DNA of 64,000 nucleotides. It comes from a virus (lineage: Duplodnaviria > Heunggongvirae > Uroviricota > Caudoviricetes). The stretch lies in the IMG/VR virus record IMGVR_UViG_3300022910_000004; one strand, written 5' to 3'. Positions 9,642 through 42,181 of this stretch are shown in pieces; positions within the stretch are counted from its first letter, which is position 1; every line of letters begins with the position of its first letter. The position numbers and the translations under genes are program-made. The notes under the pieces are model-generated. The model saw only the letters and a list, made by a program, of their open reading frames with translations. It did not search any database and was not told where the DNA came from.

Positions 9642-9717
9642 GCGCTGTTAGTTTAATGGATAGAACAGGGGATTTCTAATCCCTCGGCGGCGGGTTCGAC
9701 TCCCCCACGGCGTACCA
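9642..9717 (+). tRNA. tRNA-Arg (anticodon UCU)
   Basis: cloverleaf folded by hand: acceptor GCGCTGT/ACGGCGT (two G-U pairs), D arm GTTT/GAAC, anticodon stem GGGGA/TCCCT with loop TTTCTAA (TCT at 9675-9677), T arm GCGGG-TTCGACT-CCCCC (one mismatch), discriminator A and encoded CCA. Confidence 0.8.
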
Positions 9718-21136: not shown

Positions 21137-22858
21137 ATGCCATTAGCACAAACAGATAGTTATAAGCTTTCACACAAAGGGTTTATGAATAAAGGTACAA
21201 CTAAGCTTTATTCAAATATGACCGCCCGTTCTGGCAAACATTTCCCCGTCCTGCAAGATCGTTGGGATGGTAAAGTAGTAGTATTTGGATTTCAAAAGTT
21301 TGTCATTGAATTCCTGATTAATGAGTGGAACAGTAAGTTCTTTCAAATGCCTAAACATAAGGCTATTAAGAAATTCAAACGCCTTGTAGATGCTTACCTT
21401 GGTAAAGATGCTGTTGATATGGCACACTTCGAAGCTTTGCATGATATTGGTTATTTACCTTTGCACATCAAGTCTATTGATGAAGGTAATCGTGTAAATA
21501 TTAAAGTTCCTTTGTGGACTATTACAAATACTCATCCAGATTTTGCATGGTTAGTGAACTATCTCGAAACTGTGATGTCTTGTGAGTGCTGGAAACCAAT
21601 TACCACAGCTACGATTATCTCTGAATATCGTAAACTGATTAATGAATATGCACTAAAGACCACTGGCAGCTTAATGGGCACACAGTTCCAGATTCATGGT
21701 TTTGAATTCCGTGGAATGGCAAATCGTCAAGATGCAGCAAGCTGTGCAGCCGGAATGTGCTTATCTACAAATGGTACAGATACAATTCCAGCTTTAGAAT
21801 TAATTGAAGAGTACTACTTCACTGATATTGAGAAGTACTTTGTGGCAACTTCTGTGCCAGCAAGCGAACACTCTATTGCGTGTCTTGGAACTGCTGTACA
21901 AGGTGAATTAGAATCCTATCGTAAATGGATTACTGTAGACTATCCTACTGGCATTGTAAGCTTGGTAAGCGATACCTACGATTATTGGAAAGTACTAACA
22001 GAGTATCTCCCAATTCTTAAGCCCGATATTCTTGCTCGTCCAGTTAATGAGATTGGTTTGAGTAAAGTAGTTATTCGTCCTGATTCTGGTAACCCTGCGG
22101 ATATTATTTGTGGAGATGTTTTCACAGATTTAACTAAAGACTGTAAAGATTTTGACACTTTCAAACGTTGGGCGTTAGAAATCATTCGGGAAGAAGTGGG
22201 AGATGATACTCCTCATGGAGAGTGTGGTGAATGTAACCCAAACAAAATCTTCAAATGGCAAGATAAGTACTATGATGTACATGCAGAAATTGAATGGAAT
22301 CGTTATGATAAACAATACTATTATATGGAGGACGAACGCATCACTAGTGTGGAAGAAATTGAACTTACACCAGAACAAAAAGGCTCTGTAGAACTCCTCT
22401 GGGAGACCTTTGGAGGCACTGTAACAGAGCAGGGATACAAAGTATTAGACAGTCACATAGGATTGATCTATGGTGATTCTATTACACTTAAAGTGGCTTT
22501 AGATGTAATGGAACGATTAGCAGCCAAAGGATTTGCCTCAACAAACATAGTGTTTGGTGTAGGCAGTTATACAATGCAGTATCTAACTCGTGATAGCTTA
22601 GGTATGGCAGTTAAAGCCACCTATGGCGAAGTTGATGGTGTTGGTTATGAGTTGTTTAAAGATCCAATTACTGATAGCGGTATGAAGAAGTCAGCAAAAG
22701 GATTGTTACGTGTGGAAAAAGAGGGAGATGATTACGTTCTATATGATCAGCAAACTCTAGAGCAAGAGGCTACAGGGGAATTAACTTCTCTGTTTTTGAA
22801 TGGGAAATTGATGAAACAAACTACATTCGAAGAATGTCGTAATCGTCTTTGGAAATAA
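21137..22858 (+). CDS. nadV: nicotinamide phosphoribosyltransferase family protein (NadV/Nampt-like; candidate Namat)
   Basis: 573 aa; type-II PRTase RPDSGNPADI motif; adjacent to Prs-like gene. Confidence 0.75.
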   Translation: MPLAQTDSYKLSHKGFMNKGTTKLYSNMTARSGKHFPVLQDRWDGKVVVFGFQKFVIEFLINEWNSKFFQMPKHKAIKKFKRLVDAYLGKDAVDMAHFEALHDIGYLPLHIKSIDEGNRVNIKVPLWTITNTHPDFAWLVNYLETVMSCECWKPITTATIISEYRKLINEYALKTTGSLMGTQFQIHGFEFRGMANRQDAASCAAGMCLSTNGTDTIPALELIEEYYFTDIEKYFVATSVPASEHSIACLGTAVQGELESYRKWITVDYPTGIVSLVSDTYDYWKVLTEYLPILKPDILARPVNEIGLSKVVIRPDSGNPADIICGDVFTDLTKDCKDFDTFKRWALEIIREEVGDDTPHGECGECNPNKIFKWQDKYYDVHAEIEWNRYDKQYYYMEDERITSVEEIELTPEQKGSVELLWETFGGTVTEQGYKVLDSHIGLIYGDSITLKVALDVMERLAAKGFASTNIVFGVGSYTMQYLTRDSLGMAVKATYGEVDGVGYELFKDPITDSGMKKSAKGLLRVEKEGDDYVLYDQQTLEQEATGELTSLFLNGKLMKQTTFEECRNRLWK

Positions 22859-24408: not shown

Positions 24409-25119
24409 ATGGCAAATAGTCTTGGCGATAGAATGAAGGGTTATGAACATGTTAATCGTAACTTCTTGATTAAAAGAATGCCTGTGGTTATCCGTTTGGA
24501 TGGAAAAGCTTTCCACACTTACACTAAAAACTGTGGAAAGCCTTATGACTCAGATTTGCATATTGTTCGTAAGGCGACTCTGGAACATCTTTGCAAAGAA
24601 ATACAAGGTGTTATTATAGGGTATTCTCAGTCAGATGAGATATCCCTTGTTCTTAAAGACTGGCAGACATTCAACACTTCTGCTTGGTTTAACAATAACA
24701 TCCAGAAAATTTGCAGTGTATCGGCCTCAATGTGTACGATGAGGTGGAATAGTGCAGTTAATTTCATGAACTATGATATTGGGCATATTGTTTTAGAGCC
24801 TTGTGCTATGTTTGACTCAAGAGTGTTCAATCTTCCCAAAGAGGAAGTAGTGAATTATTTAATCTGGAGGCAACAAGATTGGGAACGTAACTCTGTCCAA
24901 ATGTTGGCCCAAAGCTTATACTCTCACAAAGAGTTACAAGGTAAAAGCTGCTCCCAATTGATTACTAAAATCGAAGAGGAATTTAATATTATCTGGGGAA
25001 ATTTTTTGCCTTGGAAAAAGCAAGGTGAAATTTGGTTTGGTGGGAAAACACAAGAGAGTTTTCTTTTTAAGAATAATCGTGTCCTTATTGAGGAAGAACT
25101 TAATTTGGAGTTGAATTGA
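24409..25119 (+). CDS. tRNA-His guanylyltransferase Thg1-like protein (3'-5' nucleotide addition)
   Basis: RLDGKAFH and GYSQSDEISLVL match the Thg1 catalytic core. Confidence 0.7.
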   Translation: MANSLGDRMKGYEHVNRNFLIKRMPVVIRLDGKAFHTYTKNCGKPYDSDLHIVRKATLEHLCKEIQGVIIGYSQSDEISLVLKDWQTFNTSAWFNNNIQKICSVSASMCTMRWNSAVNFMNYDIGHIVLEPCAMFDSRVFNLPKEEVVNYLIWRQQDWERNSVQMLAQSLYSHKELQGKSCSQLITKIEEEFNIIWGNFLPWKKQGEIWFGGKTQESFLFKNNRVLIEEELNLELN

Positions 25120-26276
25120 TGAAACGCTATTGGACATCTTTGCTCGCCACTTATGTTTTAGACTGGACAGTCCCTAATGCTATACGGGAGATTGTCCAAA
25201 ACTGTCTGGATGACCCAAGTACATTTGAATATGATCTTAGTGGCCCTACTATCGAGCTTACCTCTAAAGGTGTTCAATTAAACCCTGCTACACTCCTTAT
25301 GGGGGCTTCTGGCAAGCGAGGGGACCCTACGGTAGTGGGTGGCAAGGGAGAGGGCTACAAAGACGCGCTATTGGTCTTATTGAGGAACGGACATAAGGTC
25401 ACTATTAAGAATGGTAACAAGCTATGGATACCTTCTTTTGAATACACTGAGATGTTTGATCAAGAAGTCTTGTGTGTTACAGAGACAGACCTAGAAGATA
25501 ATGAGGACCTCACTTATCTTATTGAGGGGATAACTCCAAAGCTTAGAGATAGTATCATTCATGATTGCCTATACTTACAAGATGACCTTGGTGAAGTTAG
25601 GGAAGGTAGTATTGGTAGGATATTAGTTGATAGGCCCAATAAACTCTACGTAGGTGGCCTATTCGTCACAGACATAACAGGACATAAATATTCTTATGAT
25701 TTTGCTCCTGCATACCTCCCTTTAAACAGGGATCGTAAGTCTGTTGATAGTTGGAACTTGGCCGCTAATACCACCAAATTGCTGGAAGAGGCTTTTCCGC
25801 CTAAAGAAGTGGCAGAGATGGTCAGAGATCGTGTTCGAGATACTGGAGGTTATTACGCCAGTATAAAAAGCCAAGCCGTGGCCGAAGAGGCTTATAACTT
25901 GGTTAAAAAAGAACATGGAGATACTGTTGTTATTGCATCTAATACAGATGAAGAGCAACAACTTAAGAAGTCTGGGTATGATAATGTAAAAACTATCTAC
26001 GATGATAATTATAGACAGCTAGTAAAATCTAGTGTAGAATACCAAAGCAATGTTAATAAATTAGAAGTTAAAGTGTTAGAGGAAGATAAGCGTACACCCA
26101 TTGAAATGTTAGAAGAATTCTATTTAGCTATTGAAGATTGTCTTGATTTTGAGGGGCGAGACTTATTTGACGATTTGATGGACACTTTTAATGATCGTGG
26201 TGTAGTGTTTCTTCGTAAAGCAAGTCAAGTTACAGCCAAGACCACATTAAAAGAAGAGGAAGAAATTCCTTTTTAG
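25116..26276 (+). CDS. GHKL/Bergerat-fold ATPase-like protein
   Basis: N-box EIVQNCLD (ExxxNxxD) and glycine-rich GGKGEGYKDALLV. Confidence 0.4.
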   Translation: MMKRYWTSLLATYVLDWTVPNAIREIVQNCLDDPSTFEYDLSGPTIELTSKGVQLNPATLLMGASGKRGDPTVVGGKGEGYKDALLVLLRNGHKVTIKNGNKLWIPSFEYTEMFDQEVLCVTETDLEDNEDLTYLIEGITPKLRDSIIHDCLYLQDDLGEVREGSIGRILVDRPNKLYVGGLFVTDITGHKYSYDFAPAYLPLNRDRKSVDSWNLAANTTKLLEEAFPPKEVAEMVRDRVRDTGGYYASIKSQAVAEEAYNLVKKEHGDTVVIASNTDEEQQLKKSGYDNVKTIYDDNYRQLVKSSVEYQSNVNKLEVKVLEEDKRTPIEMLEEFYLAIEDCLDFEGRDLFDDLMDTFNDRGVVFLRKASQVTAKTTLKEEEEIPF

Positions 26277-26290
26277 TATAGGAGATAACA

Positions 26291-27475
26291 ATGACACCTT
26301 TTGAGCAACAAGGTTGGACTAAAGATAGTCTATTTACCGTAGATAACAGTTCATACTTCAGACAAGGTGAGATTATTTGGCTACATAAAGATGATAAATC
26401 AAGTAGTCCATATTTTACAAATGGTGAGATGACATTTTCCAAATGTCTATCTGGGCTAAAGTACTTAGGAGAAAAAGGTAAAATGAGTAGAGATAAAATT
26501 ACGGATAAATCTTCTTATAAGCCAAACTCTATGCCAGACATTACTAAGTTTAAGCATACTGCGGTAGTAAAGTTCTATACTGATGGAAGATTATATGGAA
26601 AAGAATATCATTATCTATGTGATGACTCTATCTTAAGGAAGTATATAGATAGCGATGGCCCTTTTGACCATACTGCTATTGTTAGTGGCGAGTCTAAGAA
26701 AATTTCAGTTAGATCGGTATTACCAAATTATCTTTCTGAAAAGGCGACTAAGGCTCTTCCAGAGGTAGCCTTTACATCACCAATCTTGACAGATTCAGTA
26801 AAAATTAAGGTTACAGTATCTAACCCTAATGAGTTAAAAGTAGGTAGTAGAGTTAAGATAAGAAAGGGTACAAGATATTATGGAAATTCTACCAGAAATC
26901 CGGCAGAGGTTGAAGGTACTGTTAACGAAATTAAATCTTCCGGTTGGTTTCATGTTATATGGGATAATGAGGAATCAGAAGATTATGAATATCCAGATTT
27001 AGAATTGGTTGAAAATAAAGTAGAAAAAGATTTGAAAATATCTTCATCTAATGCTAAAGTGGAATCTAGTGCTTCACAATCTGTAAAGCTGGTTTGGGAT
27101 AAAGAGTACTTAATGAGAGTTGGTGGTTATTGGAAAATGCCTGATAATATGGGTGTTTCTGAAACAGATGTTAAACTTAAACAAGAGGATGTTAATATGG
27201 GTGTACGTAGAACAGTAACAATTGAATTGATTGACGATGATAAGGGCTTGGATGTATCTGATGCTCTTGTTGCATCTTACGAAAATGTCTTGATTGAGAC
27301 AGATACTGAAAGTGCAATTCGTGAGATTTTGATGACCAAGAATGTTGCCAAGAAATTGGAAGAACACAATGTTAAACGCATGGCTACAGTAGATTTAGAT
27401 ATTCTTAATCGTACAGGTAATGAAGTTAAGCTCCGTTCAGTACAGCTTAATCAACTTCGTTGGAATGTAAAATAA
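26291..27475 (+). CDS. hypothetical protein (394 aa)
   Basis: GGAGA RBS; no recognisable motif. Confidence 0.5.
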   Translation: MTPFEQQGWTKDSLFTVDNSSYFRQGEIIWLHKDDKSSSPYFTNGEMTFSKCLSGLKYLGEKGKMSRDKITDKSSYKPNSMPDITKFKHTAVVKFYTDGRLYGKEYHYLCDDSILRKYIDSDGPFDHTAIVSGESKKISVRSVLPNYLSEKATKALPEVAFTSPILTDSVKIKVTVSNPNELKVGSRVKIRKGTRYYGNSTRNPAEVEGTVNEIKSSGWFHVIWDNEESEDYEYPDLELVENKVEKDLKISSSNAKVESSASQSVKLVWDKEYLMRVGGYWKMPDNMGVSETDVKLKQEDVNMGVRRTVTIELIDDDKGLDVSDALVASYENVLIETDTESAIREILMTKNVAKKLEEHNVKRMATVDLDILNRTGNEVKLRSVQLNQLRWNVK

Positions 27476-27507
27476 GCTAAACTAAAAGGTAGTATCATAG
27501 TAAAACA

Positions 27508-27538
27508 CAAAGGCCAGTAAATGGCCTTTGTCGTTTCT
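27508..27538 (+). terminator. rho-independent terminator
   Basis: AAAGGCCA-gtaaa-TGGCCTTT then GTCGTTTCT. Confidence 0.55.
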
Positions 27539-27565
27539 GTAACTTAGAAAAATAGGAGATATTGT

Positions 27566-27967
27566 ATGTATCAAGATTCTAATAGCTATTATTTGAGTGA
27601 ATATTATAAAGAGCAGGAAGAGTCAGAAAATAGATTTTTACTGAGTCTGCCTGAAGTTCGATCAGCTTGTGTAGATCTTGCAAAGAATATTATGAATGGC
27701 TACGCCGATAGTGACTCTTATCACTGGGCTTACGGTCCCTATTTTGATAGTGATACAGGAGAATATGATTCGGAACTATTAGCCGTATTAGAAGACTGGT
27801 ATCAAGATGACTTAGACCCTCTAGATGAACCATTACTAAGAGTATATGCAGTAGATGCATTACAAGCTGCTGTAGACATCCTTTACAATATGAGTATTGA
27901 TGACATACTTGAAGATGGATATCCCTTTAGTAAATTATTAAATGAGGTAGTTGAAAAGAATGAGTAA
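27566..27967 (+). CDS. highly acidic protein (candidate DNA mimic/anti-restriction)
   Basis: 133 aa with dense D/E/Y runs (DSDSYHWAYGPYFDSDTGEYDSE...). Confidence 0.45.
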   Translation: MYQDSNSYYLSEYYKEQEESENRFLLSLPEVRSACVDLAKNIMNGYADSDSYHWAYGPYFDSDTGEYDSELLAVLEDWYQDDLDPLDEPLLRVYAVDALQAAVDILYNMSIDDILEDGYPFSKLLNEVVEKNE

Positions 27968-28190
27968 AAGACTTTATACATATGAACTGAAGGACAAAGA
28001 ATATCCTGAAGATATTGTGAAAGTAGTCTATACTTCGAATAGTTGCAGTTGTTCTTATGATTGTTATGAAGATGAGTTGGACTTCTATATTGAAGATGAG
28101 TGGTATGGCAAAATAGAATTAAGGGGCAAACAGAAAGAAATAATCTTTGGGTTACTTACTTCTGAGTATGATATAAAGGAAATTAAGTAG
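27951..28190 (+). CDS. hypothetical Cys-containing protein
   Basis: 79-aa ORF. Confidence 0.45.
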   Translation: MKRMSKRLYTYELKDKEYPEDIVKVVYTSNSCSCSYDCYEDELDFYIEDEWYGKIELRGKQKEIIFGLLTSEYDIKEIK

Positions 28191-28201
28191 GAAGGTGAGA
28201 T

Positions 28202-29896
28202 ATTAGCTGTATAGAAAAGATAAAGCATGAAGTAGATCATTGTACTTCTGCGAAAGGATTACAGGTCTTTTATGATGATGGTAGAGGTAAATACACTGGT
28301 TATTGTTTCTCTTGTGCAGCCAAAGGATTAGAGGCGTACGTAGAAAACCCTTATGACGAAGGGTATGAGCCAGAACCACCAAAGAAAAAGACTAAGGAAG
28401 AAATTGATGCAGAGATTCGGGAGATTAAAGAGTTAAAACACCCTGAATTTACTTATAGAGGGATTCCTAAAGAATACTTTAAAAAGGCAGGCGTAAGATT
28501 AGCTTATAGTGAGTTTGATGGATTAACTCCAAATTCTTTTAACTTTCCTTACTCTTTAGGGGGAAATCTAAAAGGTTACAAAACAATTTTACTGAATAAA
28601 AAATTGCATTGGTCGGTAGGAGAAATTGTTGGTTGTGATCTTTTTAACTGGGAAGTTGCGAAGAAGAGAGGAACCAAGCGTTTATATGTGACGGAAGGGG
28701 AATGGGATTGTCTTTCCTTGGAGTACATGCTAGACCATACGTTTGGGCAGAATGGAAAGTATAGACATGCTGTTGTCTCTATTCCTCATGGAGCCGGTAG
28801 TGCCGCCCCTACCTTAGGGAGAATGCGTAAGGAAATAGAGGAACTGTTTGATGAAATTGTTTTAGTATTTGACAATGATGAAGCTGGGGTTAATGCGGTT
28901 AAAGAAGTTCAAAAAGTATTGCCAAATGTTCTAGAAGCTCCACATGTCACTGGTGTTAAGGACGCTAATGAGGCATTACAGTCTGGCGATTATAAAAGCT
29001 TTATTGAATTTGTTAAATGGAAAGCTCGTAAACCTCCAATACAAGGTGTGGTTACAGTTAGTCAGGCAATGGAAAGGGGAATTACCAAACCTGAGTCTGG
29101 TTTATCTCATCCTTGGGAAAAATTATCGACCGTAATGTATGGTCAAAGATTTGGGGAGGCTACTTGTGTTGCTGGATGTGTAGGCGGTGGTAAAACAGCC
29201 ATAGCTCATGAATCTAGTGCTCACAATGCAAATTTCCATAAATTGCCAAGCTTCGTCGCTTTGCTGGAAGAAGATAATATCAAAACCTGTTGGAACATTG
29301 CAGCTAAGATAGATTCTATTCCTTATAACAGACCGGAAGTCTTTGAGAAAAACAAAGAACAATACTATGAGACTATGAAGAGCTTGGAAGATAAGATCTT
29401 TATGTGGAATAGTCAAGGGAATTCTAGTTACAGATTTGATTTACCAGAAATACTGAATGCTATTCGATTTAATAATGCAGAGTATGGATGCAAATTTGCT
29501 TATATCGATAACATGACCAGATTAGTGGATACGATGCCAACAGCAGAAGCTAATGAGTTTATCAACAGATACTCAAGTGAAATTGCAAATTTGGCTAGTG
29601 AATTAGATATGCATATTTATGTGCTATCACATTTGAATCCTCCTAAATTTGGTCGAAGTCATGAAGAGGGTGGAGAGGTATTGCCAGCTCAACTTACAGG
29701 AAGTAGGGGTATCATGAGATCGTTCTCTAACATTATAGGATTTGAGAGAAATAAATTTGGAGAGACCAAACACAATTCTTTCTTGTCTCTTATAAAAAAT
29801 AGAGATTATGGTAATGAGCAAAAAATTAAATCTCAGTACAACCCTGACACAGGAAGATTAAAGGAATATGAATGGGAAGGAGAAACTTTATGGTAG
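28202..29896 (+). CDS. bifunctional primase-helicase (T7 gp4-like); N-terminal zinc-binding domain encoded upstream of the first ATG
   Basis: open frame from stop at 28196-28198; HC(x17)CFSC zinc-finger at 28230-28320; Toprim VTEGEWD and VFDNDEAG; Walker A AGCVGGGKTA; no ATG/GTG/TTG before 28604. Confidence 0.8.
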   Translation: MSCIEKIKHEVDHCTSAKGLQVFYDDGRGKYTGYCFSCAAKGLEAYVENPYDEGYEPEPPKKKTKEEIDAEIREIKELKHPEFTYRGIPKEYFKKAGVRLAYSEFDGLTPNSFNFPYSLGGNLKGYKTILLNKKLHWSVGEIVGCDLFNWEVAKKRGTKRLYVTEGEWDCLSLEYMLDHTFGQNGKYRHAVVSIPHGAGSAAPTLGRMRKEIEELFDEIVLVFDNDEAGVNAVKEVQKVLPNVLEAPHVTGVKDANEALQSGDYKSFIEFVKWKARKPPIQGVVTVSQAMERGITKPESGLSHPWEKLSTVMYGQRFGEATCVAGCVGGGKTAIAHESSAHNANFHKLPSFVALLEEDNIKTCWNIAAKIDSIPYNRPEVFEKNKEQYYETMKSLEDKIFMWNSQGNSSYRFDLPEILNAIRFNNAEYGCKFAYIDNMTRLVDTMPTAEANEFINRYSSEIANLASELDMHIYVLSHLNPPKFGRSHEEGGEVLPAQLTGSRGIMRSFSNIIGFERNKFGETKHNSFLSLIKNRDYGNEQKIKSQYNPDTGRLKEYEWEGETLW

Positions 29897-29905
29897 AGGA
29901 ACACT

Positions 29906-32038
29906 TTGAAAAAGATAACAAACTGGGCTAATGCTTCTGTAGCAGACTTAGAATCGGATGGTTTACTGGATGAAGCCACCAAGATCCATGTTTTATCATT
30001 TAAACTATCTGATAAGACAATTAAAAGTATTGAGGGAGATAATAAAGAGCGGCTGATTGCCTTCTTCAAATATCATATAGATAATAATATTCCAATTGTT
30101 ATGCATAATGGTATTTGCTTCGATGTGCCTTTAGCAGAAGAAATCTTAGGAATTGATTTATCTAACCTAATGGTTATTGATACTTTAGCAGTGAGTTGGT
30201 ATCTCAATATTGAACGTCAGAAACATGGTTTAGATTCGTTCTTAGAGGACTATGGAATTGCCAAACCTAAAATTGACGATTGGGAAAATCTTACTTACGA
30301 AGAGTATAAATTTAGATGTGAAACAGACGTTGAGATTAACTACGAACTTTGGGAGGATTTAAAAGATCGTTTAATCGATATGTATGAAAGAGTGAAGCTT
30401 GCTGTTGATATTGGTGATGTAGACGGTAAGCGAGTGGAGGGAGAAGTTTGTCATATCGATCAGTACAAACAGTCAAGTTCTGTTGAAGATTACATTGATA
30501 GGATTTTACAATTTCTTTGCCACAAAATGGATATAAGTCGTCTGAAGGAAAAGACACGATTCAAGGCTGATGAGGAAGCAATTGATGCAGGTATTGCTGA
30601 GCTAGAAGGATTTATTGATGCTGCTGCAAAAGAGCTTGAGAGTGTAATGCCTCAAGTGCCCAAATACACTAAGAAAAACAAGCCAAAAGACTGTTACAAG
30701 AAGAATGGTGAGTTGAGTGTATCAGGATCTAACTGGGAAGCAGCACTAGCTAAGATTGGTCAGAAGGATGATGATGGAAATGAACTTGTCATTGTGGTCA
30801 GTGACATTGAATTGAAAGTTCTTAACAAGTATGAGCCCCCAAATATTAATGGTAGTCAACAAATTAAAGACTTCCTATTTTCTAAAGGCTGGGTGCCAGA
30901 AACATTTAAGTACGACATTAAGGATAGCGATAAGACAGCTTGGGTTGAAAGTGGTTATAAAAAGCATCTTAAACCTGTGCCAAGGAAGATCCCACAAATT
31001 AACAGGGATGGTGACGATGGTAAGGAGCTGTGCCCTTCTGTATTAAGGCTAGCAGAGGTTGTGCCAGAGATTATGGCCTATGCCAAGTACAGTGTGATAA
31101 AGCATCGCTATGGCGTGCTGAAGGGTTTTAAAAGGGATTTGTCAGAGGATGGATTTCTAGTAGCAAGAAATGGAGGATTTACCAATACGCTGAGGGAAAA
31201 GCATAGGGAATTGGTTAATTTAGTATCAGTAAGTAAACCCTTCGGAAAATATATCCGTGGAAGTTTAATTTCTGAGAAAGGGAAGATTTTGTGTGGTAGT
31301 GATATGAGCAGTCTGGAAGACAGAATTAAACATAATTTCATGATACCTCATGACCCTGAGTATGTTGAGATTATGTCGGTCAAAGGTTATGACCCTCATT
31401 TGCAGCTAGCAGTACTTGCTGGATTACTTTCTCCCGCAGAGGAGGCTCGATACAAAGAGCTTAAGAAAAGGGATGATTTATCTCCAGAGGAGAAAGCAGA
31501 ATTCACAAAGTTAGGGATTATTAGACAGACAGGTAAAGGTGGAAATTATGCTTGCCAGTATGGAAGTGGCGCAGAGACTTTATCAAGACAATCTAAGATT
31601 CCATTAGCGACAGCTAAAAAGGTTGTAGAAGGTTACAAACAAATGAATTGGTCAATCGAAGCTATTGCTGATGATCAGTGTGTGATAACAGATGCTAGGG
31701 GACTTAAATGGTTAATTAATCCTATCAATGGTTTCTGTTACAACATTCGTAGTAACAAAGATAGATTCTCTACTCTATGTCAAGGAACAGGAAGTTTCAT
31801 GTTTGATATGTGGGTGGACAGATTCTTAGAAAAAATGAAAGAGAAATGGTCTGTAAAAAGATTATCAGGACAGTTTCATGATGAATTAGTGGTTTCATTT
31901 AGAGACACAGAAGAAAACAAGCTCGCTGTAAAAGAGATGTTAAATGCTGCTGTGGAAGAAGTGAATACAACTTTCATGCTGAGAAAGAAACTTGGTTGTG
32001 ATGTACAATTTGGTACACGATATTCAGAGATTCACTAA
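29906..32038 (+). CDS. family A DNA polymerase with N-terminal 3'-5' exonuclease (TTG start)
   Basis: Exo DLESDGL and MHNGICFD; motif A CGSDMSSLEDRI, motif B KGGNYACQYGSG, motif C QFHDELV. Confidence 0.85.
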   Translation: MKKITNWANASVADLESDGLLDEATKIHVLSFKLSDKTIKSIEGDNKERLIAFFKYHIDNNIPIVMHNGICFDVPLAEEILGIDLSNLMVIDTLAVSWYLNIERQKHGLDSFLEDYGIAKPKIDDWENLTYEEYKFRCETDVEINYELWEDLKDRLIDMYERVKLAVDIGDVDGKRVEGEVCHIDQYKQSSSVEDYIDRILQFLCHKMDISRLKEKTRFKADEEAIDAGIAELEGFIDAAAKELESVMPQVPKYTKKNKPKDCYKKNGELSVSGSNWEAALAKIGQKDDDGNELVIVVSDIELKVLNKYEPPNINGSQQIKDFLFSKGWVPETFKYDIKDSDKTAWVESGYKKHLKPVPRKIPQINRDGDDGKELCPSVLRLAEVVPEIMAYAKYSVIKHRYGVLKGFKRDLSEDGFLVARNGGFTNTLREKHRELVNLVSVSKPFGKYIRGSLISEKGKILCGSDMSSLEDRIKHNFMIPHDPEYVEIMSVKGYDPHLQLAVLAGLLSPAEEARYKELKKRDDLSPEEKAEFTKLGIIRQTGKGGNYACQYGSGAETLSRQSKIPLATAKKVVEGYKQMNWSIEAIADDQCVITDARGLKWLINPINGFCYNIRSNKDRFSTLCQGTGSFMFDMWVDRFLEKMKEKWSVKRLSGQFHDELVVSFRDTEENKLAVKEMLNAAVEEVNTTFMLRKKLGCDVQFGTRYSEIH

Positions 32039-39899: not shown

Positions 39900-40337
39900 A
39901 TGCCAGTGAATTATCTTAGCTTCAAGGATTTAGAGAAAGTATTAGGATTTAAGAGCGCAAAAGAAACAAACAATATCAAAGAGTTTGAAAGAATTATATT
40001 TGAAAATGGGGCTGATATAACTAAGCCCTATAAAATAGAAGATTGTTTTCATCGCCCTCGCACAAGCAACATTGCTTATAATGGACTTCGTGTGGTATTC
40101 CAAGAACGATTGGACAGAGATTGGGTGACAGGCAAAGCAGCTTCTTTAGATGCTTATGTAGAAGCTTCTGGAGATATCTCAATGGTTAGGGAATTACAAT
40201 CCCTTAATCCAAGAAATGATACTTCGTGGGATGAAGAAAAACATTTGAGTATTGAAATCCCTGAGGACACTCCTTTTGACAAAGAAGCGCCTGAACTAGA
40301 AAACAAAGAAGCAGTAATATTGAGGGAAATTGATTGA
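39900..40337 (+). CDS. hypothetical protein
   Basis: 145-aa ORF. Confidence 0.45.
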   Translation: MPVNYLSFKDLEKVLGFKSAKETNNIKEFERIIFENGADITKPYKIEDCFHRPRTSNIAYNGLRVVFQERLDRDWVTGKAASLDAYVEASGDISMVRELQSLNPRNDTSWDEEKHLSIEIPEDTPFDKEAPELENKEAVILREID

Positions 40338-42181
40338 TTAAAGATAAAGATTCAGTAGTAGAGTATAACGGTATCCTTATTGATTATTCCAGAGATAAGT
40401 TGATACCGGAAAAAGGTCTGGTCCTCCTTACGAAAAAGGGATTTTATAAAAAGGAACATGAAGACTCTCCACAAGAGTCTTTTGCAAGAGCTGCAACTTG
40501 TTATTCTTTTGGTGATTATGATTTTGCTCAACGAATCTATGACTATGCAAGTCGAGGCTGGTTTACTTTCGCCTCTCCTGTGCTCTCTAATGCAGTGGAT
40601 GTTGACTGGCCTTCTTTTAGAAATCATCAGTTTGATGAAGCTGGTGAATGGTTAGAGGAAAACGTAACTCCAGATGGTTTACCAATTTCTTGTTTCTTGA
40701 GTATGATCACTGACAATAAAAAAGGTCTAGTGGATTCAAGTACAGAAACACGTTGGTTGAGTATGATGGGAGGCGGCATTGGAATTTATGCTAACAACAG
40801 AGCCCCTGATGAAAAGTCTACAGGAGTTATGGCTCATTTACGTGGATACGATGCTGATGCTTTATCGTATAAGCAGACAGAATCTCGTAGAGGAAGTATC
40901 GCTGTATATTTAGATATCGATCATCCAGAAATATTATCTTTCTTGGAGATGCGTAATCCAGTTGGTGGTGATGCTAATAAGAAATGCTTTAACCTCAACA
41001 ATGCGATAAACATAACTGATAAGTTTATGAGAGCTGTTATCAAAGGTGAAGAGTATGAATTGGTTGATCCTAAGCACGGAAATACAGGAAGAAAATTAAG
41101 TGCTCGTGAAGTTTGGAAAATGATTCTTCAATCTCGTTATGAGACTGGTGAGCCTTACTTAAACTTTATCGACACAATTAATAAAAGTATTCCTAGTTGG
41201 ATTACCAAACCCACTTACAAAGTTGTGCAAAGTAATCTATGTAATGAAATTACTTTAATGACAAGTAAGAAGCGTACAGCGGTTTGTTGTTTATCAAGTT
41301 TAAATTTAGATAAATATGACGAATGGAAAGAGACAACAATAGTACAAGATATTGTTAGACTTCTTGACAATGTACTGGAATACTTTATTCGATTAGCTCC
41401 CCCAGAGTTAAACAAAGCTGTTTACTCAGCAAGTAAAGAGAGGGCAATTGGTTTAGGTACTTTAGGTTTTCATTCTTACTTACAAAGTAAACGTATTCCT
41501 TTTGAATCTGGGGGAATGAACAGTGCAGCTAGCGAAACTTATAAAATATTCTCGTATATAAAAAGAGAAGCTGTTAAAGCCAGTAAGCAATTGGCAACTG
41601 AGCGTGGTGAGTGTAGTGATTGTGCTGGCAGTGGGATGCGTAATAGTCACTTAATGGCAATTGCCCCCAACGCTTCAAGCAGTGATATGGTAGGTGTATC
41701 TCCTAGTTGTGAACCTCTATCAGCTAATGCATTTTTATCTGAAGGAAGAGCTGGTAGTTTCTTGATTAAGAACCACCACCTCAAAAGTGAGTTACAAGAG
41801 TTGGGACTTGATACAGAGGAATTCTGGGATCAAGTTGAAAGGGAGAAGGGAAGTATTCAAGGAATTAAAGGTCTTCCTGATTGGATGTATGCAGTCTATA
41901 AAACTTTTGGTGAAATTGATCCAAAATGGATTATTGAACTAGCCTCAATTAGACAGCCTGAGGTATGTCAAGGAATGTCTAACAACATTAAAGTTAGAAA
42001 GGATATTACTCTACAAAAAATGAGTGACATTCATATACTTGCTTGGTGGAAGGGACTAAAAGGTTTGTATTATTGTCGAGCAGAAAAACCTGTACAGACA
42101 TATAATGTGGATACATCTCAACCCTTAAACAAGGTGAATGTAGAAATTAATTTTGAGGAGTGTATTTCATGCTCGGGTTAA
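40334..42181 (+). CDS. nrdA: ribonucleoside-diphosphate reductase large subunit (class I, no ATP cone; TTG start)
   Basis: SNLCNEIT catalytic motif, YYCRAE, C-terminal CISCSG redox pair. Confidence 0.85.
   Translation: MIKDKDSVVEYNGILIDYSRDKLIPEKGLVLLTKKGFYKKEHEDSPQESFARAATCYSFGDYDFAQRIYDYASRGWFTFASPVLSNAVDVDWPSFRNHQFDEAGEWLEENVTPDGLPISCFLSMITDNKKGLVDSSTETRWLSMMGGGIGIYANNRAPDEKSTGVMAHLRGYDADALSYKQTESRRGSIAVYLDIDHPEILSFLEMRNPVGGDANKKCFNLNNAINITDKFMRAVIKGEEYELVDPKHGNTGRKLSAREVWKMILQSRYETGEPYLNFIDTINKSIPSWITKPTYKVVQSNLCNEITLMTSKKRTAVCCLSSLNLDKYDEWKETTIVQDIVRLLDNVLEYFIRLAPPELNKAVYSASKERAIGLGTLGFHSYLQSKRIPFESGGMNSAASETYKIFSYIKREAVKASKQLATERGECSDCAGSGMRNSHLMAIAPNASSSDMVGVSPSCEPLSANAFLSEGRAGSFLIKNHHLKSELQELGLDTEEFWDQVEREKGSIQGIKGLPDWMYAVYKTFGEIDPKWIIELASIRQPEVCQGMSNNIKVRKDITLQKMSDIHILAWWKGLKGLYYCRAEKPVQTYNVDTSQPLNKVNVEINFEECISCSG

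Follow-up and report, generated by a model that had tools for sequence, protein, structure and literature searches.

An AUU codon as the predicted start of a T7 gp4-like primase-helicase gene in uncultured phages

In the 64,000-nucleotide stretch of phage DNA analysed here (the window), translation of the primase-helicase gene very probably starts, directed by a Shine-Dalgarno (SD) sequence, at an AUU codon located at 28202-28204, which would give the full-length enzyme of 564 amino acids (plus strand, 28202-29896, with the stop codon at 29894-29896). We infer the decoding of AUU as the actual start from the homology and conservation of the region, its link to a strong SD, purifying selection on the codons that follow and the lack of an alternative start, features which can be read directly from the sequences compared. 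The sequence at 28180-28213 is aaattaagTAG GAAGG TGA GAT ATT AGC TGT ATA, in which the TGA at 28196-28198 (plus strand) lies in the primase frame and closes it upstream of the gene. As already described with correct coordinates in a first-pass annotation of this DNA, the frame is open from that stop codon, and no in-frame ATG, GTG or TTG occurs before the TTG at 28604-28606 (plus strand). This first canonical start is the one used by ORF and gene callers and yields a 430-aa product without a zinc-binding domain; the stretch ahead of it translates to DISCIEKIKHEVDHCTSAKGLQVFYDDGRGKYTGYCFSC..., and the translation of the 135 codons 5' of it is DISCIEKIKHEVDHCTSAKGLQVFYDDGRGKYTGYCFSCAAKG.... Compared with these 135 open codons, the other long ORFs of the 64-kb window have at most 25 before their first canonical start, with one exception of 54 codons in a frame overlapping a neighbouring gene. 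Given the codon usage of the gene or the genome, a run of 133 sense codons would be free of ATG, GTG and TTG with a probability of about 5e-4 to 9e-4. A generally relaxed use of start codons in this phage was rejected, since no near-cognate codon of the window other than 28202 is placed behind a strong SD, without a canonical in-frame start upstream, and at the head of a long ORF.

Comparison with orthologous primases, which had been proposed as a check, places the ATT at 28202 at the exact alignment position of the initiator codon (ATG, GTG or TTG) of the orthologs. The N-terminus of the window protein, I-S-C-I-E-K-I-K-H, corresponds to M-[A/S/G]-C-[I/V/L]-E-K-I-K-H in more than 100 metagenome homologs. 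The earlier suggestion of a non-canonical AUU or AUA start is sustained for the AUU, given the ortholog alignment, the strong SD and the recurrence of ATT in relatives, and not for the ATA at 28211.

The encoded protein resembles the T7 gene 4 product, with a zinc-binding domain, a TOPRIM RNA-polymerase domain and a DnaB-like helicase arranged in the same order. Pfam searches matched Toprim_2 (plus strand, nt 28685-28978, residues 162-260; E 6.8e-7, above its cutoff), Toprim (E 4.5e-5) and DnaB_C (plus strand, nt 29099-29761, residues 301-521; E 1.3e-7). A profile built from 45 orthologs matched T7 gp4 structures with an E value of 4e-39 from profile position 81 on, being aligned to T7 gp4 residues 79-252 and also matching the T7 gp4 helicase structures 1cr0 and 1e0j. 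Similarly, the best Foldseek matches of an AF2 model (mean pLDDT 86) were T7 gp4 chains (6n9x, E 4.7e-33), so that T7 gp4 is the best match both in sequence and in structure. The model has a beta-rich N-terminus (pLDDT 73-86; strands at residues 4-8, 21-26 and 31-36). In this region, a zinc-binding motif H-x4-C ... C-x2-C is encoded at 28226-28315 (plus strand), and its four residues are invariant in the 45-sequence alignment. Counted from the D at 28199, the ligands are H10 (28226-28228), C15 (28241-28243), C36 (28304-28306) and C39 (28313-28315). The motif had been noticed before as HC-x17-CFSC; its presence holds, and its spacing is corrected to HC-x20-CFSC. No Pfam zinc-ribbon model matched the primase-helicase, and the domain was assigned from the motif and from homology. 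Distant relatives carry C-x2-C-GSSDG ... C-x3-C at the corresponding positions, with Cys at all four, which we take to resemble the zinc motif of T7 gp4. Thus, the primase-helicase, being of the T7 gp4 type, has a genuine zinc-binding domain in its N-terminal stretch, with a motif homologous to that of T7 gp4. The window protein differs from T7 gp4 in its overall sequence (about 25% identity) and in having His as first ligand with the spacing H-x4-C; it further lacks a gp4B-type internal start and would use AUU for the full-length form, where T7 gp4 uses AUG. Among cultured phages, Aeromonas phage PVN02 and Shewanella phage MSO-5, both Chaseviridae, have the closest relatives of the protein, which align over 99% of the length with 36-40% identity. 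These primase-helicases have the same N-terminus, M-A-G-x-C-[I/V]-x-R-[I/M]-K-H, but their genes, unlike that of the window, use an ATG preceded by an ordinary SD of the sequence GGAG. A megablast search of the region against cultured phages returned nothing, and the relatives found there are related at the protein level only, with no more than 40% identity.

Purifying selection acts on the N-terminal 133 codons to the same extent as on the remaining gene. Between the window and L007, a relative with 82% identity, pN and pS are 0.11 and 0.78 for codons 2-134, and 0.11 and 0.67 for the remaining codons; the constraint is similar in comparisons with L010, L011, L044 and L045, and every difference between the window and L004 is synonymous. 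This strong purifying selection indicates that the codons ahead of TTG 28604 are translated, and it rules out a decaying leader as well as a protein made solely as a short form. Over the first 134 codons, ATT lineages contain 3.6 ATG, GTG or TTG triplets compared to 5.2 in canonical lineages, a weak trend (p = 0.014, uncorrected). The absence of such triplets from 28202-28603 might be fortuitous, or might serve to avoid competing internal starts.

The ATT is preceded by an extended SD, GGAAGGTGA, at 28190-28198 (plus strand), with a predicted duplex energy of -12.3 kcal/mol with the anti-SD; the first G of this sequence is the last base of the TAG of a small upstream ORF, and the in-frame TGA forms its 3' end. 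The SD-like element previously pointed out at 28191-28199, GAAGGTGAG, is thereby borne out. Its GAAGG core at 28191-28195 is separated from the ATT by the 6-nt spacer TGAGAT. Among about 70 gene starts in the window, which mostly carry an SD of the type tAGGAGa and use ATG in 52, TTG in 11 and GTG in 7 cases, the duplex ahead of 28202 is the second strongest. In contrast, no SD is present at TTG 28604 (-0.9 kcal/mol). The initiation region around 28202 is unstructured: its fold is weaker than that of shuffled controls (z = +1.05), and no regulatory RNA structure was found around the start. Directly upstream, sigma-70-like promoter matches did not exceed chance. The association of ATT with a strong SD extends to the relatives. 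Mean duplex energy is -12.3 kcal/mol at ATT sites, while the ATG, TTG and GTG sites of orthologs each average -8.3 kcal/mol, and values of -11 kcal/mol or stronger were reached by 10 of the 12 ATT or ATA sites but only 3 of the 44 canonical ones (Fisher p = 5e-7; Mann-Whitney p = 1.6e-4, neither corrected for phylogeny). Nine other relatives with an ATT start carry a GGAGGTG-type SD at the same spacing as in the window. The ATT lineage of L004 and L008 has only a modest SD (TAAGGA, -6.3 kcal/mol), which counts against an SD-directed AUU start.

ATT recurs at the primase start across the family. ATT AGY TGY occupies the initiator position in the window and ten further lineages with 56-82% protein identity, and is also present in L009, which was grouped with the window. 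Of the 56 distinct initiation regions compared, 20 start with TTG, 19 with ATG, 11 with ATT, 5 with GTG and 1 with ATA. L004, L008 and L043 have kept the ATT in a gene 99.6% identical to that of the window, although the upstream context is different. For L004 and L043 (JGI metagenome), the identity of 99.6% holds across primase and polymerase (20 mismatches in 4.7 kb), and the start reads ATT AGC TGT as in the window, preceded by TAAGGAAAATCAAA; L008, from an ENA assembly, is arranged as L004. In the other lineages, the ATT follows GGAAGGTGAGTT (L007), GGAGGTGTAAA (L010), GGGAGGTGTGCC (L011), GGGGAGGTAAAA (L012), GGGGGTGTACC (L013-15, one of them an NCBI assembly), AGGAGGTGTAAA (L089) and TTTGGAGGTGTATC (L091-93, listed together with L020, the protein occurring on 17 contigs). 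For these comparisons, the upstream DNA was read for every oddly short or long homolog call, and 58 related loci fetched without bias yielded three more lineages with ATT, L020, L041 and L058. At 32% identity, L084 (Ga0114899_1009084, 1192-1194) has an ATA where orthologs have ATG (aaaggagattaaa ATA GGT ATA TGT), a second kind of near-cognate start in the primase family; together with this ATA, the ATT regions span 32-100% protein identity. Two loci were left out of the counts: L088 (P0100), which is ambiguous in that an in-frame ATG precedes the ATT found at the ortholog position, and L090 (P0104), a frameshifted assembly with an ATG start. In L090 (ena:ERZ26167708 ctg195236), the frameshift at about 1050-1560 separates the zinc-binding domain (ATG, frame 2) from the remaining gene, and is probably an error of a low-coverage long-read assembly rather than biology.

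Several other explanations of the missing canonical start have to be weighed against initiation at AUU. ATT and ATG are only one base apart, and the same picture might result from a mistake in sequencing or assembly, or from a defective phage whose ATG had recently been inactivated by mutation to ATT; this is hardly credible, as the same ATT appears in assemblies of different projects (JGI 3300005577, ENA ERZ27252106 and ERZ27228472, Logan runs and an NCBI GCA assembly) and in lineages down to 56% protein identity, and as the coding sequence of the ATT lineages is intact and constrained. Independent assemblies and the conservation seen across lineages thus refute the sequencing error or frameshift considered in the first-pass annotation. 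Also very improbable, if slightly less so, is a start elsewhere in the region. The ATA at 28211 is a near-cognate codon too, but the SD core is 15 nt away from it, and in the alignment it falls on an internal Ile position occupied by I, V or L in orthologs. From the GTG at 28195-28197, skipping of one base would give M-D-I-S-C; this GTG, however, overlaps the SD, is followed three codons later by an in-frame TAG, and is absent from L004, L010, L011 and others. A short form without the zinc-binding domain, made from TTG 28604 instead of or in addition to the full-length protein as in the case of T7 gp4B, would agree with this codon being the first canonical start and the choice of gene callers (P0002, 430 aa in the database). 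We nevertheless consider it quite unlikely, because TTG 28604 lacks an SD and corresponds to about residue 130 of T7 gp4, inside the RNA-polymerase domain (N-terminal subdomain) rather than in the linker, and because the codons ahead of it are constrained. In addition, the first canonical triplets of other ATT lineages fall at unrelated positions (codons 4, 11, 20, 22 and 98-100), and orthologs have no canonical in-frame start in common in the linker that follows the zinc-binding domain. An internal start with its own SD behind this domain, as in the dual 4A/4B arrangement of T7, was accordingly not found, which leaves the additional short form proposed earlier unsupported, and TTG 28604 is probably not the true start of the primase-helicase.

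The strongest of these competitors, though still unlikely, is termination-reinitiation, in which ribosomes that finish the small upstream ORF at TAG 28188-28190 would restart at the AUU, coupling outweighing fresh binding of 30S subunits. The distance between an upstream stop codon and the ATT is 1-15 nt in the window, L004, L007, L010, L012 and L013, and at an infC-type stop/AUU junction about half of the translation of an E. coli reporter resulted from reinitiation (PMC3592434). Tight gene packing is, however, usual across these phages, so that the proximity of a stop codon is not specific to the primase, and the extended SD points to SD-directed positioning. Moreover, L011 retains the ATT and a strong SD despite a gap of 53 nt to the upstream gene; coupling is therefore not required, and it may contribute alongside SD-directed initiation. 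Two further candidates were rejected: an alternative genetic code or readthrough of TGA 28196, as the primase frame upstream is full of stop codons and the window's long ORFs read normally with code 11, and a fusion with or frameshift from the 79-aa upstream ORF, as this ORF is absent from L004 and L007, which both keep the ATT.

With SD-directed initiation at AUU 28202 as the preferred reading, the extended SD (GGAAGGUGA, core 6 nt upstream) and the unstructured region would position the 30S subunit at the AUU, where the initiator tRNA would pair with the near-cognate codon and read it as fMet. The predicted product is the full-length protein of 564 aa, fMet-Ser-Cys-Ile-Glu-Lys..., which includes the zinc-binding domain. 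The long SD would partly offset the weak codon and fix the start site. To our knowledge, bacteria hardly ever use AUU as a start, E. coli having two such genes. Non-canonical starts account for 0.004-0.024% of annotated bacterial starts; infC and pcnB of E. coli have an AUU start, a type of codon against which IF3 discriminates (PMC5499595). The conserved AUU or AUA starts of S. aureus (AUU in cvfC1; AUA in ccpN and infC) all have extended SDs, and reporters of cvfC1, ccpN and citZ, the latter also with AUA, gave about 10% of AUG expression (PMC13009471). In E. coli, AUU typically reaches 1-2% of AUG (cited in PMC5499595), perhaps a low yield for a protein essential to replication, which may speak against an AUU start. 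As in infC, pcnB and cvfC1, the window primase has a conserved near-cognate codon behind a strong, extended SD at proper spacing, located at the initiator position with no canonical alternative and found again among relatives. Translation of the bacterial AUU and AUA genes studied is attenuated and IF3-sensitive (PMC5499595; PMC13009471; PMC3592434). By analogy, the weak codon probably holds synthesis of the primase-helicase to roughly one tenth of the AUG level or less, and it is about as likely as not that synthesis is both low and sensitive to IF3. The preference of the family for weak starts and the TTG of the adjacent polymerase gene fit with low synthesis. The phage case is unlike the bacterial ones in that it concerns a phage replication gene whose start alternates between ATT, TTG, GTG and ATG within the family, and in that the ATT initiation region moves between lineages in a recombining 5' module. 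A special initiator tRNA encoded by the phage was not found in the window, where tRNA-Arg(TCT) at 9642-9717 is the sole tRNA gene.

In a neighbour-joining tree, ATT lineages are scattered among those with TTG, GTG and ATG. L058 and L020 have about 60 nt of upstream sequence plus TTTGGAGGTGTAYCATTAGCTGCGTAGAA in common, although their primase bodies fall into different subclades, and L005 and L022 share a different, TTG-type module. The initiation region with the 3' end of the upstream gene (about -60 to +15) is found as alternative ATT and TTG modules, whose shuffled distribution does not follow the phylogeny of the primase body. Thus, the scatter of ATT over the tree arises, at least in part, because the initiation region and the upstream gene form a recombining module, and independent recurrent mutation as its sole cause is weakened accordingly. 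Such shuffling implies that the first codons of the primase are a hotspot of recombination. The region of ATT and extended SD appears, by the same comparisons, to be an old allele that is kept and circulated by recombination rather than a product of fresh mutations. The small upstream ORF in the window (27951-28190, plus strand; 76-79 aa, Cys-rich, no family match) ends with its TAG 11 nt before the ATT, and is absent from L004. Here, positions 27950-28201 of the window (252 bp, containing the Cys-rich ORF) replace 23 nt of L004 (2978-3000), and the right-hand breakpoint coincides exactly with the primase ATT at 28202. Further upstream, the identity between the window and L004 is 97.5% (26815-27949) and 88.6% (24934-26768), the region being mosaic. 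It might tentatively be speculated, although we rather doubt it, that extended SD and AUU form a selected mobile regulatory cassette, by which the supply of IF3 in the host, or the host's translational state, would set the dose or timing of the replisome in a manner similar to infC. If so, swaps with TTG, GTG and ATG cassettes would let lineages tune the amount of replication protein.

Gene callers truncate or misplace the primase-helicase in every ATT lineage examined. The miscalled products of 430, 464, 466, 469, 523, 551 and 556 aa lack the zinc-binding domain wholly or in part, while in one ATT lineage the call was extended to an upstream ATG instead; databases therefore hold primase-helicases that seemingly have no zinc finger. 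The mechanism of AUU initiation is already known. New, as far as these sequence comparisons indicate, would be a phage replication gene family with widespread AUU initiation, as would its pairing with an extended SD, its exchange by recombination and its systematic mis-annotation, and a literature search found no paper describing a phage primase with an ATT start. The family favours weak starts, about one fifth of the distinct initiation regions having ATT with a compensating long SD. This provides comparative evidence for the ideas that selection maintains near-cognate initiation in phages and that primase-helicase dosage is set at the initiation step. At the same time, homologous genes starting with ATT, TTG, GTG and ATG constitute a natural matched set for the trade-off between start codon and SD strength.

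The primase gene is adjoined by a family-A DNA polymerase gene (29906-32038) for which TTG is the only canonical start available, and nearly all primases of a clade with 57-59% identity start with TTG; weak start codons seem to be typical of the replication module. The phage, which belongs to an uncultured, myovirus-like group represented solely by metagenome contigs of about 85-97 kb, encodes a baseplate wedge protein, and nicotinamide phosphoribosyltransferase (NAMPT; phrog_448, E 2e-176) and the large subunit of ribonucleotide reductase are encoded at 21137-22855 and 40334-42178, respectively. Between the genes for a 394-aa and a 133-aa protein, positions 27507-27531 hold a GC-rich hairpin with a perfect stem of 10 bp and a loop of 5 nt (ACAAAGGCC-agtaa-GGCCTTTGT); it is terminator-like in both orientations and may delimit the primase operon at its 5' end. 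In several relatives, the primase-helicases (P0025, P0028, P0035, P0048, P0084 and P0094) measure 854-921 aa and probably contain inteins, homing-endonuclease domains (PF05203/PF05204) being present in most of these proteins. An Intein_splicing domain was also identified in the polymerase of L013 (2875 onwards), while the genes of the window are without inteins.
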